This document shows, in pieces, positions 2,459 through 43,895 of a DNA stretch of 43,895 nt. How positions within the stretch are numbered: the first letter of the stretch is position 1; every line of letters starts with the position of its first letter. The notes under the pieces are model-generated. The model was not told where the DNA came from. It saw nothing but the letters and a program-made list of their open reading frames with translations, and searched no databases. The translations under genes were made by a program, and so were the position numbers. This DNA comes from a virus, in UHGV virus genome UHGV-0356621. One strand, 5' to 3'.

Positions 2459-2761
2459 TTAAGCCCAGACGCGAGCCAGTGTTTTCGGTGCAACCACAAA
2501 GTCGTTCAGCCCGGATAAATCGAGCGAGTCATTCATGACCCGCAAATTGGCGTGATAGCCGGGTTCGGTGGTGTACTTGATAACTTCGTTTTCCTCGCCG
2601 GAATTGATAACTTCAGCAGGAACAGTGATAACGCCGACGATATCCAGGCTGATATCAGGGTGATAAAAACCACCCTGTCCCTCATCATCCACAAACCCCG
2701 CCGCGATTAATTGCGTGCGCATTTGGTTGGCGTCATTAAAGCGCAGATATAAGTCTCTCAT
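2459..2761 (-). CDS. Hypothetical tail-fibre-associated protein
   Basis: 100-aa ORF between the two fibre genes; ATG overlaps the upstream stop (TAATG). No recognisable motif. Confidence 0.4.
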   Translation of the reverse strand: MRDLYLRFNDANQMRTQLIAAGFVDDEGQGGFYHPDISLDIVGVITVPAEVINSGEENEVIKYTTEPGYHANLRVMNDSLDLSGLNDFVVAPKTLARVWA

Positions 2762-4269
2762 TAGCGGAGTCCATTGATTTGGTTGGGAGTTAGCAGGCGG
2801 TGCCAGATACGGAAATTGCGAATGTGGTAAACAAACCTTACGGATGTAGTTTGGTTTATATTCCCTATATACGAAACGGATTGCGTGATGTCATTAGGAG
2901 TAACGCTATGAGAGTTTGAATTACCGTTGTAGTAGTTTGATATCCTGCCCCTTTCCGTTGTATGAACGAATACTCCGCTACTACCCTGGAGGCAAGGTAT
3001 ACTAATGTCCGTTGAACTTCGATACGATTTTACTGTGTTGTCGTTAACCCACCTGCAAACAATATCATTGCTTGGGCCTTGTACCTTAACAACTTCAATA
3101 TATCCATCGGAAGCCTGTAAATATTTAGGGAAAAATTCAAATGCCAAAGTTCTGTTGAATAGCGTTGCAAGAGTAGGGTATCCACAGTTTTCTTTCGGGA
3201 TTTGCCAGTAATCAGCAGCTCTTGTAACTGTAGTTGCGGCCGTCGGGATATAGGATGTTGGGAATGGGCTATCTTCTAATTGTGCGCCCCAGGCGTATAA
3301 ACCAGATACGCCATCTCCGGTATAGATTGTTGACACACCATTTGCTAATTGAATGCGAATAACTGTTCTCTGACTCGCTCCGGCTGTGAAAACCATCCAG
3401 ACACGGTATATGCCATTTCCGAAATCATCAAAACCACGATCAACAAATTGAGCACCATGGCCAGGCCCAACCCAGGCACCTGCAGCCGGGTCAAAGAAAA
3501 CGCCTGATGTACTACCAGAAGCAACACGCAGATATAAATTACGCGGGCTGGTGTGAGCTTTTACGAAAACCGAATAACAATAAGTTGTTCCTGCTGTTAA
3601 AATAATATTGCGGTCTTGTGCATAGTGTTCAATGGTAGGGGAGGTACTCTCAATTATAAGCGCCATCGTTTTATCGCCGCGAGGCGAGTCGCCGCTATTA
3701 TTCGTTGTGGTAACGTCTTTCCCTGCGTCCCACTGTTCTGAATATGTATACAGGTTCGTAATCTGATGCTCAATTAAAAGCCCCTCTTTCTCAAAGCGCG
3801 GCTCATTAATTGCCGCCGTCTTCAGCACACCAGATTTATCGATGTACGTCGCCGTCGTTGAGCGAGTGAACGTCATCGACTTAGTGGGCAGAGGGTAACT
3901 TGTGCCGGCCACTGTGATTGTGTCCGCCGGCGCGATCCCGGCCAGCAGGCGAAGGTCATCGGACAGCGGCGCCCAGACATCCGGGAACGGCGCATCAACG
4001 TAAACGGTGGCGGCAGCCGAGTTCGCAGCATCAGCTGCGCTCTGGGCTGCTGCAGCGGCTGAACTGGCTGCAGCCTGCGCCGACTGGCTCGCTGATTGCC
4101 CTATCGCAACTACGTCGGCTTGTAGTCCGGCAAGCGTTTTAGCTTTTTTGCCCGTTCTGGTCGTAACCTCCTTACTGCTGGAATTTACGACCTCATCCAG
4201 AGTCTGCTGGTTATCAGCAAAGTCACGCAAATCGCTGGATGGTACTGAGTTATTTGTATTGTAAGGCAT
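2761..4269 (-). CDS. Tail fibre / host-specificity protein, proximal part
   Basis: 502 aa with an Ala/Ser/Gln-rich N-terminal stretch typical of fibre shafts; sits between baseplate genes and the distal fibre gene; ATG verified with AGGAA RBS. Confidence 0.6.
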   Translation of the reverse strand: MPYNTNNSVPSSDLRDFADNQQTLDEVVNSSSKEVTTRTGKKAKTLAGLQADVVAIGQSASQSAQAAASSAAAAAQSAADAANSAAATVYVDAPFPDVWAPLSDDLRLLAGIAPADTITVAGTSYPLPTKSMTFTRSTTATYIDKSGVLKTAAINEPRFEKEGLLIEHQITNLYTYSEQWDAGKDVTTTNNSGDSPRGDKTMALIIESTSPTIEHYAQDRNIILTAGTTYCYSVFVKAHTSPRNLYLRVASGSTSGVFFDPAAGAWVGPGHGAQFVDRGFDDFGNGIYRVWMVFTAGASQRTVIRIQLANGVSTIYTGDGVSGLYAWGAQLEDSPFPTSYIPTAATTVTRAADYWQIPKENCGYPTLATLFNRTLAFEFFPKYLQASDGYIEVVKVQGPSNDIVCRWVNDNTVKSYRSSTDISIPCLQGSSGVFVHTTERGRISNYYNGNSNSHSVTPNDITQSVSYIGNINQTTSVRFVYHIRNFRIWHRLLTPNQINGLR

Positions 4270-6621: not shown

Positions 6622-7260
6622 TTAACCTCCCAGCGGCTTAGTATTGCTTCCGCCGCTCTCAACGCCGCCATGGGTATGCTTATCCACGATAGAACCGTCC
6701 ACCAGCTGCAAGCGACCGTCAGACAGTATTTTGAGCCCGTTAAGGTTGAATCCGCCCGGCGCTGTGCCATTTATTTCCCCGCTGGATGGGTTAAGGCTTA
6801 ATTTTGTACCGCCGTCATCGCTGCGCAGCTCTACCGAACTGGTACTGATGCCGCTGATTTTCTGCGCTTGCGACTGCGGGCCAACGATGGCGAACGCATC
6901 AGATAAGTCATGCTGGCGCGGGTCGACGGTCTCCTGAACGCCGCCGCTCTGCCACCAGAAATCGATGCAACGGTCGGCAAAGATCAGCAGGCACTCGTCG
7001 CCTTCTTTAACCGGAAAGGTCAACGTGCAACCGCCGCCGCGCGGGAAGATGACCGGCACATCCACCAGCGGTTTTAATTCGGTGGAGCCATCGCCAACGA
7101 CACCGCGAAGCGCCACCTCTACCGTGCAGGTAACAGCGTCAGGATCGAACGACTGAATGATGCCGGGCATCGCTACGCGCATCTGGGTAGACACCGAATC
7201 GGCAATGGCCTGCGCGGTCTGCTGCTCGCCGCCGATCTGTGATTGAGTTGGAATTGGCAT
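6622..7260 (-). CDS. Baseplate spike / assembly protein V (Mu gp45-like)
   Basis: 212 aa with a Gly-rich C-terminus and DKHTH motif as in gpV-type spikes; ATG verified. Confidence 0.6.
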   Translation of the reverse strand: MPIPTQSQIGGEQQTAQAIADSVSTQMRVAMPGIIQSFDPDAVTCTVEVALRGVVGDGSTELKPLVDVPVIFPRGGGCTLTFPVKEGDECLLIFADRCIDFWWQSGGVQETVDPRQHDLSDAFAIVGPQSQAQKISGISTSSVELRSDDGGTKLSLNPSSGEINGTAPGGFNLNGLKILSDGRLQLVDGSIVDKHTHGGVESGGSNTKPLGG

Positions 7261-7269
7261 AAAAACCCC

Positions 7270-7294
7270 ATAAAAAAACCCGCTCGGTGGCGGG
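7270..7294 (-). terminator. Rho-independent terminator downstream of the lipoprotein gene
   Basis: Minus-strand hairpin ACCCGC-N6-GCGGGT followed by a T7 run (plus strand shows AAAAAAA ACCCGCTCGGTGGCGGGT). Confidence 0.6.
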
Positions 7295-7326
7295 TTATAA
7301 TTTTCTAAAAATATTAAAGAGCCATT

Positions 7327-8049
7327 TTAAAGTAATCCCATTTTTCTGGCAGCTTCAATATTGTAAACATCTCCACGACCACTACACGGGGCAGCTAATG
7401 TAACCATTTCCACATACCCTTTATTACCTTTCTGTTGGCATATGCTCGCATGCATTTTCGCAAGCCTTGCCGCATGCTCGAAATCTATATAACTATCAAA
7501 CGAAGCTTCACTTAATGCGGTATATTTTGTTTTATCAGGTATGCTATTTATTTTTAACATGCCAGAAAAGTCATTCAACGCTTTAGTTAAATTAGATATG
7601 CAAATATTTTTATAATTAGCATTATCATATGCTGAGGCTCTTTTGCATTCTTCAGCGTATCCAGTGATAGCGATTTGTACACGTCTCATTGTTAAATGAT
7701 AACCACCGACTTTCACATAAACGTTATCCATATTCTGTGAATTTGGATAACGAGTAACAAAGCCCAAATTGTTAAGCGCTCTACTTAGTTCGTTTCCACT
7801 TGAACTTGAAGAATCAACATCTAACTTTTCCACTTCTACTTCAGGGTGTGAAGCTTCGAAATTTTCAGCTTCTTCTTTTTGTTTTTTTAACCGATTTTTT
7901 TGATTTTCATCAACTTGCTTTTCATACTCAACTCTTTCTTTCTCTTTTTGTGCCAGCCATTCCCTTTGTGCATTAACACCATTAGGGTCCCAACTGCATG
8001 AAGTCAAAAACATTGAAAAGAAAATGGGAGTTATTGCAAGCATATTCAT
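7327..8049 (-). CDS. Predicted lipoprotein of unknown function, AT-rich inserted gene (moron)
   Basis: N-terminus MNMLAITPIFFSMFLTSC has a lipobox (LTSC); Lys/Glu-rich coiled-coil segment then a Cys-containing C-terminal domain. The DNA is visibly AT-rich against GC-rich baseplate neighbours. ATG at 8049 (track start 8052 is TTG). Confidence 0.6.
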   Translation of the reverse strand: MNMLAITPIFFSMFLTSCSWDPNGVNAQREWLAQKEKERVEYEKQVDENQKNRLKKQKEEAENFEASHPEVEVEKLDVDSSSSSGNELSRALNNLGFVTRYPNSQNMDNVYVKVGGYHLTMRRVQIAITGYAEECKRASAYDNANYKNICISNLTKALNDFSGMLKINSIPDKTKYTALSEASFDSYIDFEHAARLAKMHASICQQKGNKGYVEMVTLAAPCSGRGDVYNIEAARKMGLL

Positions 8050-8056
8050 CAAAAAT

Positions 8057-9121
8057 TCATCCTGCGGTTTTGTTTATGGACGCTCCTGATTGCAAATCTC
8101 GCGCCCCCCTCGCAAAGCACATCAAATCCATGTACCACGCCTGACCTCTTGTGTCGCCAGTATAGTCGATAGCTTTGACGATATAAACGCCATCTGTAGC
8201 AATGCTGGCAGCCTGTGACGTCGTACCTGTCAGTACGCGGTTGCCGTTCTCTTCCGTCTCGGTGATACGCCCGGGCGACTGCGCGATTTCGCTATTGCCG
8301 AGTGCGGCGCGGTACACTGAAGCCTGATCGAGCTGGATAAGGCCATTAATGCGGATGTTGGGGTTTATCAAACACCGCACGTTTACGCCGCCGCCCATCG
8401 TCTGTTGCGGCATACCGATCAGGCCAGTATCGGCATTCAGCACGATGGCTTCGTGAATATATTTATCCTCCGGCACCATCTGGACCTGACCATCCACCAG
8501 CTGCCATGTCGCTTTGCACTGCGCAGCAATATTATCCATCACGTTACGGGTGGATGAGTAAATCGCGCGGCCACGAGGAAACACGGTATCAGGAAAGTCA
8601 CCGGTTATGCCCTGCGTTACGCCGAACGCGTTGAAATCCTGCATCGTCGCCCGGTGCAGATCCGCAACGGTATAACCGGCTGCAAGCGTGGTGATGGTAG
8701 TCGCATAGAGGAACGCTTCGTGGTCACCAATCGCCTGAATCAACACCCAGGAGTCGGTAATGTTATCCTTCCCGGTGACGGTGAAGCGAATATCACCGTC
8801 AAATATCAGGCCGTAGTTCTGACCGTTCACCTGCCCTACCTGGTCTGGTGAAATCTTCCGGGCGACACCAACCTGGCTCGCATCAACATCCGGCGCAATA
8901 CCGTCATACCCGGCAATGATGCGAATTTTTGCAAACTCCTGCCCCAGTATCTTGTTCGTGGTATCGGTCGAAAGGTTGTAAATTTTCACGTTCGCCACTC
9001 GCGGCCAGCGTGTATCTGCCCACTCGATCTGGAACGTGACCTTAAAATCAGACAGGGAAACGCCCTGCCCGTTCTGGTCCAACAGTTGCAGCTCAAAATG
9101 GCGCATCCAGTTAAGAGACAT
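8057..9121 (-). CDS. Tail/baseplate hub protein (Mu gp44 / P2 gpD position)
   Basis: 354 aa between the tape-measure-proximal tail genes and the spike; assigned by gene order; ATG verified. Confidence 0.5.
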   Translation of the reverse strand: MSLNWMRHFELQLLDQNGQGVSLSDFKVTFQIEWADTRWPRVANVKIYNLSTDTTNKILGQEFAKIRIIAGYDGIAPDVDASQVGVARKISPDQVGQVNGQNYGLIFDGDIRFTVTGKDNITDSWVLIQAIGDHEAFLYATTITTLAAGYTVADLHRATMQDFNAFGVTQGITGDFPDTVFPRGRAIYSSTRNVMDNIAAQCKATWQLVDGQVQMVPEDKYIHEAIVLNADTGLIGMPQQTMGGGVNVRCLINPNIRINGLIQLDQASVYRAALGNSEIAQSPGRITETEENGNRVLTGTTSQAASIATDGVYIVKAIDYTGDTRGQAWYMDLMCFARGARDLQSGASINKTAG

Positions 9122-23819: not shown

Positions 23820-24077
23820 CTACTTCGTTTTTGCTTCCGCTCTTTTACGGCGGCGCTCTTCTTTCTTCTCGGCGTTTGCCATGTCCATGAATGCCTGCAT
23901 GATCGAGTTCCTCATCATGTAACTGACAAAGTGATGATTGACGCAGCCGTTGAGACGGAGTTGCTCGCCAAACTGATCAACCGAGGCCAGCACTTCCATC
24001 ATGCCCTTCTCGCCTTTCATGAACTCTGAGAAGTCGCGCCCCGCTCTGGAGGCGCATTCAATGACACGATCACTCAT
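23820..24077 (-). CDS. Hypothetical protein
   Basis: 85-aa ORF upstream of terS; ATG verified; ATGA overlap with the KilA-N gene stop. Confidence 0.45.
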   Translation of the reverse strand: MSDRVIECASRAGRDFSEFMKGEKGMMEVLASVDQFGEQLRLNGCVNHHFVSYMMRNSIMQAFMDMANAEKKEERRRKRAEAKTK

Positions 24078-24571
24078 CCCGGAAGCCCGGGGATCGTAAT
24101 CTGCAGCTGGTTAGCCAGGGAGTTAATCTCAGCGACCAACACTGGCTTCGTATAGCGCCATGCCGCCAGCCCTTGTCCGCAGAAACTCGCCATGTCTTTC
24201 TTCTGGTCAAACTCATGACATTTCATGTTGAGCTGCGCACTTAAGCTGTTGCGATGCTGAAGTTCTCCGGTGAAGTAGTCATCGAGGACTTTATAGGCCG
24301 CGTACTTGAACCCGGGGTTTAACCAAGCCGCATAATCGTAAGCAACAAACTTCCCGCCATATGTTCCACCGTGTACACCGCGCTCAGTAAAAACCACAGA
24401 TTCGTGGTTTTTCTCCAGCTCGGCTAAGAACTCTTTGGTCTGCTTGTTTCGCAGGTAGTGGTAAGGCGATTCAGATTCACTTTTGCCACTGGCTTTCCAC
24501 ATATCGGTGAGGCAGATCATGCCGTCTTCCCCGACACGGATTGGTTGATTGAAGAGGGTTAATGATTTCAT
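24074..24571 (-). CDS. KilA-N domain protein
   Basis: N-terminus MKSLTLFNQPIRVGEDGMICLTDMWKASGK fits the KilA-N/APSES-type pattern; ATG at 24571. Confidence 0.5.
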   Translation of the reverse strand: MKSLTLFNQPIRVGEDGMICLTDMWKASGKSESESPYHYLRNKQTKEFLAELEKNHESVVFTERGVHGGTYGGKFVAYDYAAWLNPGFKYAAYKVLDDYFTGELQHRNSLSAQLNMKCHEFDQKKDMASFCGQGLAAWRYTKPVLVAEINSLANQLQITIPGLPG

Positions 24572-24718
24572 TTCGCTGATACCTTTTGGTGGTTGAGCCT
24601 GTTCTCGTAGATACGGGCAGCCCAAGAGCGGTCAGCGTTACCACTGCCCTATCTCAAGCTCTACCCCGAAAGGCTCTTGGTTGATATGCGCACGAGAATG
24701 CGCGTGTTTACTTCAGGC

Positions 24719-24747: not shown

Positions 24748-24996
24748 TGATGATTCGATTTTCCTGATTGCTGCCTTATCCAGATTGCACTGCCCCAGCG
24801 CCGTATAGAGCTGAGTGTTTAACTCCAGACTTGCCTGCCACGTGAACGGAACCGCCATTCCGGGGATCGGCGTGTCAGCTGTCAGGTCAGCGCTTATCGG
24901 CACCACCGGGGCCGGAACGTAAACTGTCTGCGTATTCCCGCAGGCTGTCAGCAGCGGCAGAAGGAACAAGCTGGTTAGCGCACGGATCGCCTTCAA
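24733..24996 (-). CDS. Rz1: o-spanin (Rz1-like outer-membrane lipoprotein), overlapping Rz in another frame
   Basis: Lipoprotein signal ...KAIRALTSLFLLPLLTAC with lipobox; Pro-rich mature part; probable TTG start at 24996 (track start 25080 is GTG). Confidence 0.5.
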   Translation of the reverse strand: MKAIRALTSLFLLPLLTACGNTQTVYVPAPVVPISADLTADTPIPGMAVPFTWQASLELNTQLYTALGQCNLDKAAIRKIESSRASQ

Positions 24997-25273
24997 GCGC
25001 CTGCCTGATGTAGACAATGCGCGTCTCGCCTTTATGGGCCAGTTCGTTCTTTGCATTCTGGGTAGCCTGTGAGATGTCACGGATGAGGTTCATCGTGGTG
25101 ATCACGTTGTTGGTGATCGCCTCTGATTTGTCTGCCCTGACCGTTTCTTTATCGCGCTGGTCTTTGTAGGCGATGGCGTTGTTGCGGTAGTGGTTCACGA
25201 AGAACGCCAGCACGCCGATTAACGCCAGCACCAGCAACTGCATCCAGTAACGTTTAACCAGCGCGCCAATCAT
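24887..25273 (-). CDS. Rz: i-spanin (Rz-like)
   Basis: N-terminal transmembrane segment then VNHYRNNAIAYKDQRDK, matching lambda Rz (VNHYRDNAITYKAQRDK); ATGA overlap with the endolysin stop. Confidence 0.75.
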   Translation of the reverse strand: MIGALVKRYWMQLLVLALIGVLAFFVNHYRNNAIAYKDQRDKETVRADKSEAITNNVITTMNLIRDISQATQNAKNELAHKGETRIVYIRQALEGDPCANQLVPSAAADSLREYADSLRSGPGGADKR

Positions 25274-25710
25274 GACAGGAACAGAGCGCGCTCCGCCTCC
25301 CGGCGACGTGTCAGCCCATTCAGCACCTTCCCACCAGCTTTATTCCAGCGCAGGAACTCATCGGCTGCACCAGCGTAATCACCAGCGTTGAGTTTTCGCA
25401 ATAGCGTAGATGTCGACAATGACCTAGCACCGAGGTTGTACGTGAACGACACCAGAGCATCGAATTGCCCCTGAGTCAGACCGACTTTAACCAGGCGGGA
25501 CACGTCACTTTCGTAGCTGACCAGTCCGGTTTTCAGCAGGCGATCCGCAGTTTCCTGCTTAATCGTCATCCCGGCGCGGATCGGTTTACCGTCGACAGGC
25601 TGAGTCCAGCCATAGCCGATCGTCCACACTCCGACGCTGTCCTGGTAGGCAGTGAGCTTGCAACCTTCGAACTGCTTGATCAGGGCAATGCCTTTATCAC
25701 TGGTTTGCAT
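25270..25710 (-). CDS. R: Endolysin, T4-lysozyme-like (glycoside hydrolase family 24)
   Basis: [28 protein letters not shown] matches the lysozyme catalytic motif; ATG at 25710 with GGGAG RBS (track start 25737 is TTG). Confidence 0.85.
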
Positions 25711-26017
25711 CGTCAACTCCCGCCTTTTTTGCTGCAAGTTTTTTAATCAGATTGCCGATCGAATCGGTGCCGATGTATCCAATAAAGACGCTGGCTATGT
25801 AGGCGAGGTTGCTGCTCAGGCCGATAAAGTCCAGAAAGTCACGAACGAACCAGGCAATCATCGCGCACATCAGCGCATCAATTAGCGTTTTTGTTACCGC
25901 GCCGCCGTTATAGCGACCACGCAGATACGCCATGATAAAAGCCAGCATTGCACCAATACCCTGCTCCTTGGCGGCAAGTAGCGCAGCGATGAAATCTTGT
26001 TTGTATGGCATTTTCAT
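25697..26017 (-). CDS. S: Holin, lambda S family, with dual-start MKM motif
   Basis: [40 protein letters not shown]... is close to lambda S over about 105 aa; strong GGAGGTGAGG RBS; Met1/Met3 dual start as in lambda holin/antiholin. Confidence 0.9.
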
Positions 26018-26199
26018 AGGCCTCACCTCCGATTTTCCGGATGGTGCTGTGTGTGTTTGTAGGGGAAAGGCCGTCAGACTCTGATTGCTACATGGCATCT
26101 GAAAATGATATCTGCGGCCTGCAATAAAAAAGCCCACGGCGCGGTGGGCAATAGAGGGTAGTGCGTTGAGCTTTTGCTCTTATGGTCCTGGTAGGTATT

Positions 26200-26371: not shown

Positions 26372-26869
26372 TTAAATTGCAAGCACGTTGTGTGATTTAT
26401 TTGCAATTTTCCTCACATTTTCGCGATCGTTAAACGCATTTTGAAGCGGTTGGTATAAACAGAACAATGAAGCATTGATTATTTGCTTCACCTCTCTACG
26501 GATTGTCGAGATGCTTGGGTGTTTGTACTGATTGCCGCCACGCGTCTTCATAAGGCGAGGCTTACTTACTGCATGCTGCCATGATGCAATTCGGATCTCG
26601 CTGGAGTTGCAGACGTAGTAGGCGAAGATAACCCGCCAGGCATTTTCATCCACATTCTTCAGATAGTGACGAATGACAGCATCAATGAGCATCCCGTCAT
26701 CATCACTACATACCGGTCGTGATGCTTGCTGGGGCTCGACGGTAGCCATGAATCTGGCAATCATGTTGATCATCGCTTTATCAATCTTGCCGGTCTGGCA
26801 CCATGCGCCCCACAACTGGAGCCACTGGTCTACCCATTGATGCTGGTCGTTGGTTAATTCCAGTTTCAT
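26372..26869 (-). CDS. Q: Late-gene antitermination protein Q (Phage_antitermQ-type)
   Basis: Motifs LWGAWCQTG, VCSDDDGMLID and FAYYVCN resemble the WGAW / CCDDDAM / YY signature of this Q family; located just before terminator, tRNA and lysis genes. Confidence 0.7.
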   Translation of the reverse strand: MKLELTNDQHQWVDQWLQLWGAWCQTGKIDKAMINMIARFMATVEPQQASRPVCSDDDGMLIDAVIRHYLKNVDENAWRVIFAYYVCNSSEIRIASWQHAVSKPRLMKTRGGNQYKHPSISTIRREVKQIINASLFCLYQPLQNAFNDRENVRKIANKSHNVLAI

Positions 26870-35862: not shown

Positions 35863-36036
35863 ATGGATAATCAGGATAATGAGTTAAGAAAGGTTGTTCA
35901 GGAACTTGCTGATGAAGAAGGCATCAGCTTTTCCGATGCCCTAGATGTTTCGATTAAAGCGCTGCGTTATGAGGTAGAGCGCAGAAAATCGTTTAACGGT
36001 GAAGCTGCTTGTGATGGCTCTGCAATTACTTCTTAG
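35863..36036 (+). CDS. Small acidic hypothetical protein (57 aa)
   Basis: ORF MDNQDNELRKVVQELADEEGISFSDALDVSIKALRYEVERRKSF...; first ORF downstream of the OL-like operators; 3' end overlaps the convergent gene by 11 bp. Below the track cutoff. Confidence 0.35.
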   Translation: MDNQDNELRKVVQELADEEGISFSDALDVSIKALRYEVERRKSFNGEAACDGSAITS

Positions 36037-36304
36037 CCAAGTACCAAGAGGTGTCTGCGGCTTCGGAAACCAGTACGTAATAGCTTTGCTTTACACTACT
36101 AGCTATACCTCTGACTTCCTCTCTAACGTTATATGCAGTTGATGTTTTTACGGTTGTATATTCAGCTGTTGGGAGGTTAAACCAAGTGCCATTACCATCC
36201 TGTATCTCACGCGAATAACCCTTTGCTTTCATCTTTTCATGAAGATTTTCATAGTCTTCAGAATCAGCGCCGCGCAACTCAACTCGAACAATATATCTTG
36301 CCAT
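36026..36304 (-). CDS. Hypothetical protein (92 aa), AT-rich gene antisense to the early-left operon
   Basis: ORF MARYIVRVELRGADSEDYENLHEKMKAKGY... with AGGAAT RBS; DNA is visibly AT-rich; the longer track ORF (to 36595) is an upstream extension. Confidence 0.5.
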   Translation of the reverse strand: MARYIVRVELRGADSEDYENLHEKMKAKGYSREIQDGNGTWFNLPTAEYTTVKTSTAYNVREEVRGIASSVKQSYYVLVSEAADTSWYLAKK

Positions 36305-36530
36305 AAGAAGATTCCTATATTGACTGTGGAATGAGCAACATATCAGTTTCCTTTGACTGTGGAAAGCAAAGGGACACGGGCCGGGCGTGGATAAAAATCC
36401 CGGCAATAACTGGAATGTTTTGTAGTGCAGTGAATTGCAGCTGCATCGACGGCAACCGGAAGATAAGCACCCGGCGCTGCACCACAAAGCATTTCTCCCG
36501 CATCCGCGGGTAACGACAGAGGGTAAAAGG

Positions 36531-36827
36531 ATGATCGACGACATCAAGCGCATCGACTCAATGATAAATGTGCTTCGAAATATGAAACAGGACATTAAGC
36601 GCCAGCAGAAACTAAGTGAAATAAACAGCTTAGACCTTACGCCAAAGCAAGCTCAAAAGCGCAATGCCGATGCTGGCTGGATTGCGATGGAACAGATTAA
36701 GCGCCGGCATGAGCTGCACGCTCTGTCAGTTGAGCTTGGGTTCGCTGAACGCCGGGAAAGTTATGCTCCATTTGAATTAACTGACGGGTGGCACCGATTC
36801 AACCACAAGCCGCGCGAACCTCAATAG
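36531..36827 (+). CDS. Hypothetical early protein
   Basis: 98 aa from the ATG at 36531 after an AAAAGG RBS. Confidence 0.4.
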   Translation: MIDDIKRIDSMINVLRNMKQDIKRQQKLSEINSLDLTPKQAQKRNADAGWIAMEQIKRRHELHALSVELGFAERRESYAPFELTDGWHRFNHKPREPQ

Positions 36828-42334: not shown

Positions 42335-43524
42335 CTGAAGGGCTCTCCGATGATCTCTTCAAGATGGCTCTGCCAAACGCGGAGCCAGTGTTTCTGATCA
42401 TCGATATAGTCATGAAGGTTGTAATGCGCCATAACCCCCACCATCTGATGCCCGAGCAGCTTTTCAATTACGTGCGGCGGGCAACCTAACTCAGAGAGAT
42501 TTGTGGCTATCGTCCGCCTCATATCATGAAGCGACCACTCTGCCATACCTGTTCCATTCCAAATAGAACGGGCGTAATTGGATGCCACAGGTGAATGAAC
42601 GGGCGAATCTTTGATCCCGCCATCAATTTTACGTTGTGAAGTCACCAGGTGATTGGTGTTTATTTTCTTGAGGTGATTTCTGACCAGGTTAACGGCGGCG
42701 TCTGAGAGTCCCCTTCTAATATGTACCCGAGTTTTATAACTGCCCGCAGGCACGACCCACTCATTATCATCCAATCGAAACCATGATCTCTCACTAAGTC
42801 GAATCTCAGCCGTACGGCATCCGGTAAGCATAATAAATTTCACCAGGAAAACGGACTCTATCGACATATGGCTTTTCAACCACTGATAGATTTTGCGCAG
42901 ATCGTCATCGTCCATCCTGCGAGTTCTCTTTTTAGGCTTTTGCCCGACATCAGATGGCAGTAATCCCTCGAGTGGGTTTGAGGCGATCACACTTCTGTTA
43001 ACGCAGAACCTAAACGCCCGTTTGCACAGCGAAAGCATGTAATGAGCCATCACCCTGCTTTCTATAGAATCGAAGACGTTGATCCAGTGCATTTTCGCTG
43101 TGTTATCGACTTTGACATTCTTCATCGGTTCGGCGATATGTTTCTCAAACACCTGGCGATAGTAATCGACTTTAACTAGCCCGTTAGCGATACAGTGCCT
43201 TTCAATCCAGTAATTGAACGCTTCGGCAACGGACATCGCTTCCTGTCGGGTCTGCTTATCCAGCTTCACCTGCTCTCGCGGATCCAGTCCCTCAGTTAAC
43301 CAGTTTCTGAATTGTTGGCGACGCTCTCTTGCCTGGGTGATACTCATTGCAGGATAATCACCAACATTGAGTTTTACCGCTTTACCGGCCCAGCGATACC
43401 GATAGAAAAATGATATTTTTCCGGCCTGGCTGATTCTGGCGTTGAGCCCGTGCGAATCAGAAATAATCTCGATATCATCTCTTTTCTTGCCGAGCGCCTT
43501 CCTGAGCTTTGTGTCGGTGATCAT
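42331..43524 (-). CDS. int: Tyrosine integrase, P4-like family
   Basis: N-terminus [10 protein letters not shown]...[29 protein letters not shown] as in P4-type integrases; C-terminal catalytic region ...HDMRRT...LLGH...Y; start at 43524 is one of several possible. Confidence 0.85.
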
Positions 43525-43729
43525 TGAATGGGTACACATTTTTGTTTTTGGGTACACAAAAGTGTACACAAAGTTGCCCACTCAAAGCTACACGCAATGT
43601 AACACTAGTTCGCAGAGTGTTATGGTTTACATCCTTGAAAGCCTGCTGGATAAGGGTTTAGCGTAACAGAACGTTTTTACGCGGAATTGTTCGTAATATG
43701 CCAAATGACAATTTAAGAAAGTGTTCTAA

Positions 43730-43895
43730 TTTATTAGAAATTTGAACTTAAATCAAAAAGTTACGGACAATCCAACCACCAATCAATAAATTAAAGGGCA
43801 CATTAAAGTACACAAGATTTGTGCCCTTCTCTGTTTCTTTCCCGTTATCAGCTAGCTGGAAACTTTTTATACAGAGTTGAGAGCCCTACTCCATA
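43730..43895. repeat. Terminal direct repeat, copy 2; matches 1..166
   Basis: 164/166 identical to the window start; includes a truncated copy of the invertase 3' end running off the window edge. Confidence 0.9.

Follow-up and report, generated by a model that had tools for sequence, protein, structure and literature searches.

Among the phage products described so far that act at the cell envelope, gp15 of phage HK97 is encoded by a moron of the tail operon and the exclusion it exerts depends on the tail of the incoming phage (PMC3594210), Llp and Rtp45 are periplasmic lipoproteins binding, i.e. clamping, the receptor (PMC9586334, PMC12685063), Spackle from T4 is a periplasmic inhibitor of the spike lysozyme gp5 (PMC7677548) and Ltp from Streptococcus phage TP-J34 is a lipoprotein targeting the tape measure protein (PMC3952083). 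The locus compared with them here lies in the virus genome UHGV-0356621, of which the whole stretch of 43,895 nucleotides (43.9 kb) was analysed and is hereafter called the window. There, a gene for a predicted lipoprotein of 240 aa stands between the baseplate hub and central spike genes. Rather than a one-off intruder, the gene represents one of the alleles found at a variable position resident in the tail module, and its product would act, with a probability we put at roughly 40 to 45%, as a moron-type phage-exclusion factor at the level of the envelope.

The gene, its flanks and the parts of its product are arranged as follows.

8057..9121, minus strand: upstream flank, baseplate hub gene, 354 aa (phrog_196 at 1.4e-83; PF22759 E217_GP41)
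8159..8187, minus strand: candidate sigma-70 promoter TTTATA-17-TATACT, within hub codons 312-321 and ~110 nt upstream of the lipoprotein ATG
7327..8049, minus strand: lipoprotein coding sequence, 240 aa, from the list of open reading frames (ORFs) and the sequence (stop codon 7327-7329, ATG at 8049)
7996..8049, minus strand: predicted signal peptide (residues 1-17) and lipobox L-T-S-C (Cys18 at 7996-7998)
7849..7986, minus strand: highly charged (E/K/R/Q-rich) helix of 46 residues, residues 22-67 (AlphaFold2 model, predicted local distance difference test score, pLDDT, 90-94)
7330..7848, minus strand: globular alpha/beta core, residues 68-240, with four conserved Cys (135, 150, 204, 222) and the motif F-x-H-A-A-R-L-A-x-M-H
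7270..7296, minus strand: intrinsic terminator, 7-bp stem at 7277-7296 (5 GC) and U7 at 7270-7276
6622..7260, minus strand: downstream flank, central spike (gpV-like) gene, 212 aa (PF18352 at 1.8e-41 and Apex motif)

Like the morons of lambdoid phages, of which HK97 gene 15 is the prototype (Juhala et al. 2000; Cumby et al. 2012, reviewed in PMC3594210), the lipoprotein gene is an extra member of a tail operon placed between genes that are adjacent in relatives, with a deviant guanine-plus-cytosine (GC) content, a terminator of its own and a product predicted here to reside in the envelope. Unlike them, it has no visible separate intergenic promoter, its product is a 25-kDa predicted outer-membrane lipoprotein where gp15 is a small inner-membrane protein, and its slot is a hot spot with many alleles, in which the first gene belongs almost always to a related exported set. 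Llp (T5), Cor (phi80/N15/T1-like) and Rtp45 are likewise predicted outer-membrane lipoproteins on the periplasmic face, encoded in tail regions (PMC9586334, PMC12685063). However, their mass is about 6-8 kDa, their genes adjoin that of the receptor-binding protein and they clamp FhuA or LptD, whereas the window protein is three times larger, combines a stalk with a globular domain and is encoded beside the hub and spike genes. Membership of the Llp/Cor/Rtp45 group was rejected, considering the lack of any family match in Pfam, PHROGs or NCBIfam, the mature mass of 25.1 kDa and the hub and spike neighbours, so that the Cor- or Llp-like nature suggested by the first-pass annotation holds neither by sequence, size nor position. 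Membership of the lambda Bor family was also rejected, with no Pfam or NCBIfam match at E-values up to 5 in any of 30 family members. Spackle and Ltp offer a different likeness, as exported phage proteins acting on the incoming tail tip and not on the receptor, Ltp being in addition a lipoprotein; yet neither gives a sequence or fold match to the window protein, for which a tail-tip target is only hypothesised. Besides, the gene for Spackle is an early one, of a lytic phage, and that for Ltp belongs to the lysogeny module of a phage of Gram-positive bacteria.

A variable slot between the hub and spike genes

The slot was sampled with the hub protein as probe, and hence independently of the lipoprotein, in 53 species-representative genome loci and 80 viral contigs. 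Loci with both a hub and a spike gene amounted to 138, that is 122 independent ones and 16 fetched earlier through the lipoprotein, with a hub-spike gap of -70 to 2817 nt. The content of the 122 independent loci is as follows.

14/122 loci: slot empty, hub and spike genes abutting or overlapping
8/122 loci: first slot gene encoding the lipoprotein core, with 6 short forms like the window copy and 2 long forms
76/122 loci: first slot gene encoding a 109-122-aa secreted protein, phrog_3443
10/122 loci: first slot gene encoding a 288-298-aa lipoprotein, with a distinct N-domain fused to the phrog_3443 module
4/122 loci: first slot gene encoding another exported protein
10/122 loci: first slot gene encoding something else
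L001 (Citrobacter phage Omnitron), 4308-5085, and also loci L019-L151: slot usually starting with a phrog_3443 protein

The slot is occupied in 108/122 modules, and the first gene encodes an exported protein in 98 of these 108. The phrog_3443 module, predicted to form an 8-stranded beta-barrel with a terminal Cys pair, is present in 86/122 modules, alone or behind the lipoprotein N-domain. The long forms of the lipoprotein family (360-379 aa) share their N-domain with the 288-298-aa lipoproteins, at 32-40% identity over 137-212 residues. Because the same N-domain is fused to either the lipoprotein core or the beta-barrel module, the first genes belong to one modular set in 94/108 (87%) of the occupied slots; its members start with an export signal or lipobox, continue with a spacer helix or optional N-domain and end with either the phrog_3443 beta-barrel or the alpha/beta core, and the exchange of the two behind one N-domain implies analogous periplasmic roles. 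The phrog_3443 proteins, a family of unknown function, thus resemble the window protein in that they occupy the same slot directly 3' of the hub gene, as its commonest occupant, are exported, are encoded by genes lower in GC than the hub gene and can be joined to the lipoprotein N-domain also used by the core family of the window protein. They differ from it in their fold, a beta-barrel of ~95 residues as opposed to an alpha/beta core of ~170 residues, with no detectable sequence relationship between the two. The first-pass annotation had seen the gene as interrupting an otherwise syntenic baseplate block: the adjacency of hub and spike genes in 14/122 modules bears out the interruption, but the block is not otherwise syntenic, the slot being filled in the great majority.

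Within the window, the slot contains a single cassette, i.e. the AT-rich gene and its intrinsic terminator. The composition noted at first reading stands, with a GC content of 0.357 and a GC content at third codon positions (GC3) of 0.261, as compared with 0.52-0.58 and 0.59-0.66, respectively, for the five nearest structural genes on either side; with an average of 0.525 over the whole window, the gene is the sole extended island below 0.42 GC. The family is AT-rich in every host, its median GC content being 16 points below that of the hub gene (14 distinct gene copies). Citrobacter phage Omnitron, with flanks 94% identical to those of the window and a hub 97% identical, is devoid of the lipoprotein and has in its slot two other AT-rich genes, both with signal peptides. 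When the window is aligned with Omnitron, the left breakpoint falls within the final ~15 codons of the hub gene, which are thus part of the exchanged segment, and the right one at the terminator. Between the window and the prophage of E. coli M172-1, the synonymous divergence (dS) reaches 0.73 for the cassette and only 0.27 for the hub and 0.235 for the spike genes. With a dS about three times that of its flanks, the cassette has a history different from theirs and was exchanged separately, in keeping with the horizontal acquisition proposed beforehand.

The position beside the hub gene is kept in the relatives. In the contexts retrieved through the lipoprotein itself, from Serratia, Cronobacter, Citrobacter koseri, Pantoea, E. 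coli and a metagenome, the gene always lies directly 3' of the hub gene, at -4 to +23 nt. Scanning IMG/VR with the family alignment returned 44 loci, and in 43 of the 43 with upstream sequence the gene is in the hub-spike slot; it starts no more than 200 nt from the hub end in 41/43, the other two being long forms in which the N-domain explains the distance. In the module of P0079, a relative found by profile only (E 3.5e-10), the hub is 41% identical and the gene is located between the plug and hub genes; it has a GC content below that of most neighbours and ends at a terminator. The hosts of the family are enteric, plant-associated and insect-associated.

The location between hub and spike genes, together with a hub adjacency kept across deep divergence, would be expected of a structural or assembly component of the baseplate. 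Such a role is nonetheless highly improbable, as the lipobox is invariant, which predicts export and lipidation, the nucleotide composition is foreign, Omnitron does without the lipoprotein despite its 97% identical hub, the gene occurs in only 8/122 related modules and a tblastn search of 50,697 deposited phage genomes with the lipoprotein gave no match. The gene is not a conserved baseplate component, Omnitron having other cargo between flanks 94% identical. The earlier reading was therefore right in kind, namely an acquired accessory lipoprotein and not a part of the baseplate, and too narrow on context; the lysogenic conversion it invoked is no more than a possibility. A moron-encoded envelope protein is of a known kind, and the modular exported family beside the hub gene is the more interesting lead.

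Behind the first gene, further slot cargo encodes Fic/DOC, YafO, EACC1, DUF4236 and T5orf172/MUG113 proteins, a content typical of conflict systems, and the slot behaves like a defence or conflict island inside a tail operon. In the Cronobacter prophage (L007, 6866-7862) and other loci, a YafO toxin gene is found with an upstream partner and Fic/DOC with a Phd-like gene, besides EACC1 and DUF4236, and the T5orf172/MUG113 protein is of 409 aa. In the same Cronobacter locus, 3' of the lipoprotein gene, a remnant at 6625-6710 encodes the C-terminus of a phrog_3443 module (…AILNVQLVQANINAPRVYGTYDCVKVK), the scar of one first-gene type replacing the other. In the E. coli M172-1 prophage, which adjoins tonB/yciI, about 450 bp absent from the window separate the lipoprotein gene from the terminator, and an extra ORF annotated as 53 aa (L002, 7700-7861) is likewise absent from the window.

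The predicted lipoprotein and its family

The coding part of the ORF runs from 8049 to 7330 on the minus strand, and an alternative TTG start at 8052 would lengthen the protein by one residue. The ATG lies 7 nt from the hub stop codon (8057-8059), with a Shine-Dalgarno (SD)-like AGGA at 8060-8063 overlapping the end of the hub gene, and 66 nt separate the end of the gene from the spike start at 7260. The product is predicted, by sequence rules, to be a lipoprotein exported by Sec and processed by signal peptidase II. Its N-terminus reads MNMLAITPIFFSMFLTSC; the residues ahead of the lipobox are MNMLAITPIFFSMF, followed by LTSC, which matches the pattern [LVI][ASTVI][GAS]C, the hydrophobic stretch and lipobox together being LAITPIFFSMF-LTSC. 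In an alignment of 30 family sequences (37-86% identity), Cys18 is invariant and Leu15 (position -3) at least 90% conserved, which confirms the lipobox reported at first reading and shows that it is no artefact of the start codon. The +2 residue is Ser in the window copy and S, G, A, N, R or K among the 30 aligned relatives; Asp at +2 is absent in these as well as in the distant lipoprotein forms read, and the Lol +2 rule thus predicts sorting to the outer membrane.

Downstream, the first-pass annotation described a charged coiled coil followed by a Cys-containing domain. The long charged helix is borne out, with 46% of charged residues over residues 22-67 and 7 opposite-charge pairs at i/i+4, but not the coiled coil, since the best heptad register has hydrophobic residues at just 38% of the a/d positions (0.38). 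Given this high charge and poor heptad pattern, the helix is probably a single helix of the ER/K type, forming a rigid spacer of ~7 nm rather than a classical coiled coil; its length is free of insertions and deletions in 26/29 aligned relatives, though its sequence drifts. As for the Cys-containing domain, C135, C150, C204 and C222 are each invariant or at least 90% conserved in the alignment. The AlphaFold2 model built from the family alignment (mean pLDDT 86.7, predicted template modelling score 0.73) consists of the long helix and then the alpha/beta core. The mature protein is of 25.1 kDa with an isoelectric point of 6.5.

Among 5.8 billion proteins searched by word index, 54 relatives came up, each bearing the name 'hypothetical'; those with an organism name come without exception from Enterobacterales. 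Only 36 relatives were obtained when 1.84 billion cluster representatives were searched exhaustively by profile. By these matches, the lipoprotein is no orphan and appears as a member of a family of at least 50 proteins confined to prophages of Enterobacterales. Compared with the 86%-identical allele of E. coli M172-1, the ratio of nonsynonymous to synonymous substitution rates (dN/dS) is 0.09, which shows a real gene under purifying selection. A close DNA match to the gene occurs in 1/5,426 complete E. coli genomes.

That the sequence matched no recognised family was upheld, scans of Pfam, PHROGs, NCBIfam and PADLOC giving no credible match, a Pfam scan of all 30 family members no consistent weak match, and sequence as well as profile searches of PDB no significant one. 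The matches to BamD (TIGR03302; 19 bits against a cutoff of 81), Slp (E 0.14) and Cas6f (E 0.014) were dismissed as noise from the signal peptide and helix. In BFVD, one unnamed viral protein of 324 aa was found, H9C1A6 (E 6.7e-3), which is probably a long-form relative. When the distant long forms were compared with deposited phages, the sole match was a truncated, signal-less remnant 3' of the hub gene of Hafnia phage yong1. The remnant is gp67 (L152, 3154-3564), an ORF of 136 aa whose similarity to the lipoprotein core is limited to the C-terminal part of the latter and which, as annotated, lacks a signal peptide; it is probably a decayed or mis-started relative. The literature search found no paper on the hub-spike slot or on the lipoprotein family.

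Terminator, candidate promoter and late transcription

The window is a lambda-like temperate prophage with a contractile tail of the E217/PhiTE type. It carries genes for an integrase, RecT, an S24/HTH (CI-type) repressor, O, P, NinB and NinG; the tail block comprises, in order, the tape measure (SLT domain), a Dit-like protein, a Pam3-gp18-like plug, the hub, the lipoprotein gene and the spike, then a 117-aa protein, Baseplate_J, DUF2612 and the fibre. The genes for late regulation and lysis are the following.

26372-26869: Q antiterminator
25697-26137: holin
25270-25737: lysozyme
24887-25273: Rz i-spanin with embedded +1-frame Rz1 o-spanin (lipobox LLTAC), downstream of the holin and lysozyme genes

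With its own holin, lysozyme and Rz/Rz1, the lysis cassette is complete without the lipoprotein gene. Rz1-type o-spanins are short outer-membrane lipoproteins rich in proline, their genes lying in or beside that of the i-spanin within the lysis cassette. A role as Rz1-type o-spanin, or as spanin, was ruled out for the lipoprotein considering this separate Rz/Rz1 pair and the location of its gene 17 kb away in the tail module.

The terminator attributed to the gene at first reading is real. Its hairpin, AACCCGC-CACCGA-GCGGGUU (-11.1 kcal/mol), lies 30 nt past the lipoprotein stop codon and ends 10 nt upstream of the spike start, running into the spike ribosome-binding region. While its energy alone is unexceptional (z = -1.15), its position is kept, with compensating changes in the stem, in Omnitron, Pantoea, Citrobacter koseri and L017; in Omnitron, a hairpin of different sequence is followed by the same U-run and spike start. 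A strict hairpin with T-run, at most 110 nt upstream of the spike gene, is present in at least 89/108 occupied loci, with differing stems, and several of the misses stem from the placement of the spike start; a few distant loci with only the beta-barrel gene are devoid of terminator. Because of this recurrence upstream of the spike gene, the terminator goes with the 3' edge of the slot and not with any particular cargo.

The candidate promoter matches the consensus at 9/12 positions, which by itself is not above chance (3 sites in 3 kb against 3.5 expected), and the same -35/-10 pair is found in 65/106 distinct cargo-bearing loci. Synonymous constraint was measured on a codon alignment of 110 hub genes: Thr321 (ACT, giving the last T of the -10 hexamer) is the most constrained of 71 four-fold hub sites, with an entropy of 0.26 against a median of 1.44, and among 43 two-fold pyrimidine sites the strongest constraint is on Tyr313 (TAT, in the -35 hexamer; entropy 0.25, median 0.76). 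In the spacer separating the hexamers, codons are free to vary, and several other 3'-terminal codons of the hub gene are constrained as well.

In lambdoid phages, late transcription antiterminated by Q passes intrinsic terminators, and the Q antiterminator of the window indicates late transcription of this type. The lipoprotein could then serve the phage itself late in its cycle, its gene being transcribed together with the hub gene and perhaps coupled to it in translation, with a task in the periplasm of the producing cell such as receptor masking, by which fewer progeny would be lost on debris, or the modulation of lysis or peptidoglycan, and not act as a defence of the lysogen. The start 7 nt past the hub stop codon, the SD-like AGGA overlapping the hub end, the equally tight spacing in relatives (-4 to +23 nt), the presence of Q and the distant modules in which the beta-barrel gene, devoid of terminator, looks like an ordinary late-operon gene all agree with it. 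This account is nevertheless unlikely. If all transcription were Q-modified, it would be hard to see why at least 82% of occupied loci retain a terminator at the edge of the slot, and holin, endolysin and Rz/Rz1 are already supplied by the phage. In addition, the slot is empty in 14/122 modules and different genes take the place of the lipoprotein gene elsewhere, and it is therefore dispensable for virion production.

Exclusion at the envelope and other possible functions

The favoured reading, envelope-level exclusion by a moron-type factor, draws on the analogy with the known exclusion proteins and on the conflict-type company in the slot. The anatomy and composition of the cassette, the conserved lipobox and Cys, the confidently modelled stalk and core, the selection on the gene and its separate exchange, its locking beside the hub, the exported first genes of the slot and the possession of Q and Rz/Rz1 by the phage speak for it as well. 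The globular domain, stabilised by disulfides, would be held in the periplasm near the peptidoglycan by the ~7-nm charged helix anchored on the outer membrane. Late transcription modified by Q would read through the terminator, so that the lipoprotein would be made with the tail genes, and the sigma-70-like candidate promoter inside the hub gene may in addition drive its expression in the repressed state, in which case the spike gene would be protected by the terminator. The lipoprotein would then interfere with phage entry at or after adsorption, its target being possibly an outer-membrane or periplasmic host component, or else the incoming tail tip (hub, spike or tape measure). A further benefit could be that progeny are kept from being wasted on cell debris.

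Several observations weigh against exclusion at the envelope. Intergenic promoter space is absent, with 7 nt from the hub stop codon to the ATG, and the sole candidate promoter is inside the hub gene; there, the conserved T at position 5 of the -35 hexamer is non-consensus, and the synonymous constraint in the hub gene may equally reflect a recombination anchor or an RNA element. The n-region of the signal peptide in the window copy starts with MNM and is devoid of K/R, while most relatives begin with MK or MR; this lack of positive charge is atypical, though not disqualifying. Homology to any protein of known function is absent from the libraries searched. The locking of the gene beside the hub may simply come from homologous recombination in conserved flanks rather than from a functional link. 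Finally, no co-variation of the family with spike length or with the presence of SLT in the tape measure was seen in the contexts read: the family is found with 212-aa and 246-aa spikes alike, and SLT matches accompany it in 3/7 contexts. A link to the C-terminal type of the spike and a specific inhibition of the SLT domain of the tape measure were both considered and rejected on these respective grounds.

Rather than being directed at other phages, the lipoprotein may benefit the lysogen itself through a change of the envelope, e.g. serum or complement resistance, stress tolerance or adhesion, as a lysogenic-conversion factor of the host-fitness kind with no role in phage conflict. The moron-like anatomy, the AT-rich composition and the predicted location in the outer membrane would suit such a factor, for which lambda Bor, a prophage outer-membrane lipoprotein, provides an example of like kind (PMC3594210). 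The 'complement-inhibiting protein ChiB', returned by the profile search of PDB, could be counted in its favour as well, but this match is weak (E 0.021), covers the signal peptide and helix only, and was rejected. No similarity to Bor or to any virulence family appeared in the Pfam and NCBIfam scans, the family occurs only beside the hub gene of one tail type across diverse host niches, which fits a phage-directed role better, and the co-resident cargo of the slot consists of conflict genes. This host-fitness account hence appears rather improbable.

A broader and doubtful proposal, extending exclusion at the envelope to the whole slot, is that the gene 3' of the hub in temperate myophages of the E217/PhiTE type would represent a previously unrecognised modular class of periplasmic exclusion proteins, intercepting, at a fixed distance beneath the outer membrane, the tail tips of incoming phages that share the tail type and linked to the hub gene so that determinant and target travel together.

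Phage resistance and limits of host range stem in large part from prophage morons acting at the envelope, of which few have a known mechanism. In this respect, the hub-spike slot is a clean and abundant natural experiment, with dozens of exported-protein alleles, two interchangeable effector folds and, besides these, cargo of the toxin-antitoxin and other conflict types. If entry is indeed blocked via the tail tip or a periplasmic host factor, the slot proteins would add a class with a new mechanism to superinfection exclusion among Gram-negative bacteria and would help to predict which prophages protect Enterobacterales from therapeutic phages; if their function is another one, they still define an uncharacterised periplasmic function kept by most of these phages. 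The polylysogeny of Pantoea stewartii ATCC 8199 could be used for probing narrow exclusion specificities of the beta-barrel variants: this single genome contains five hub genes of this type (L030, L040, L047, L048, L051), and the three slots with a readable first gene all encode divergent beta-barrel variants.

Elsewhere in the window, a KilA-N/ORF11CD3 protein is encoded at 24074-24625, and a 189-aa ORF at 36026-36595 has a weak GhoS-like (endoribonuclease antitoxin) Pfam match (E 4.4e-4), just under the gathering score. Smaller stretches of low GC content (0.39-0.42) are found at 1201-1600 and 2801-3200, in the tail-fibre region, and at 43401-43800, near the integrase end. At 0.45, the GC3 of the fibre gene (2761-4269) is below the value of about 0.6 found elsewhere, suggesting that the fibre module was swapped.

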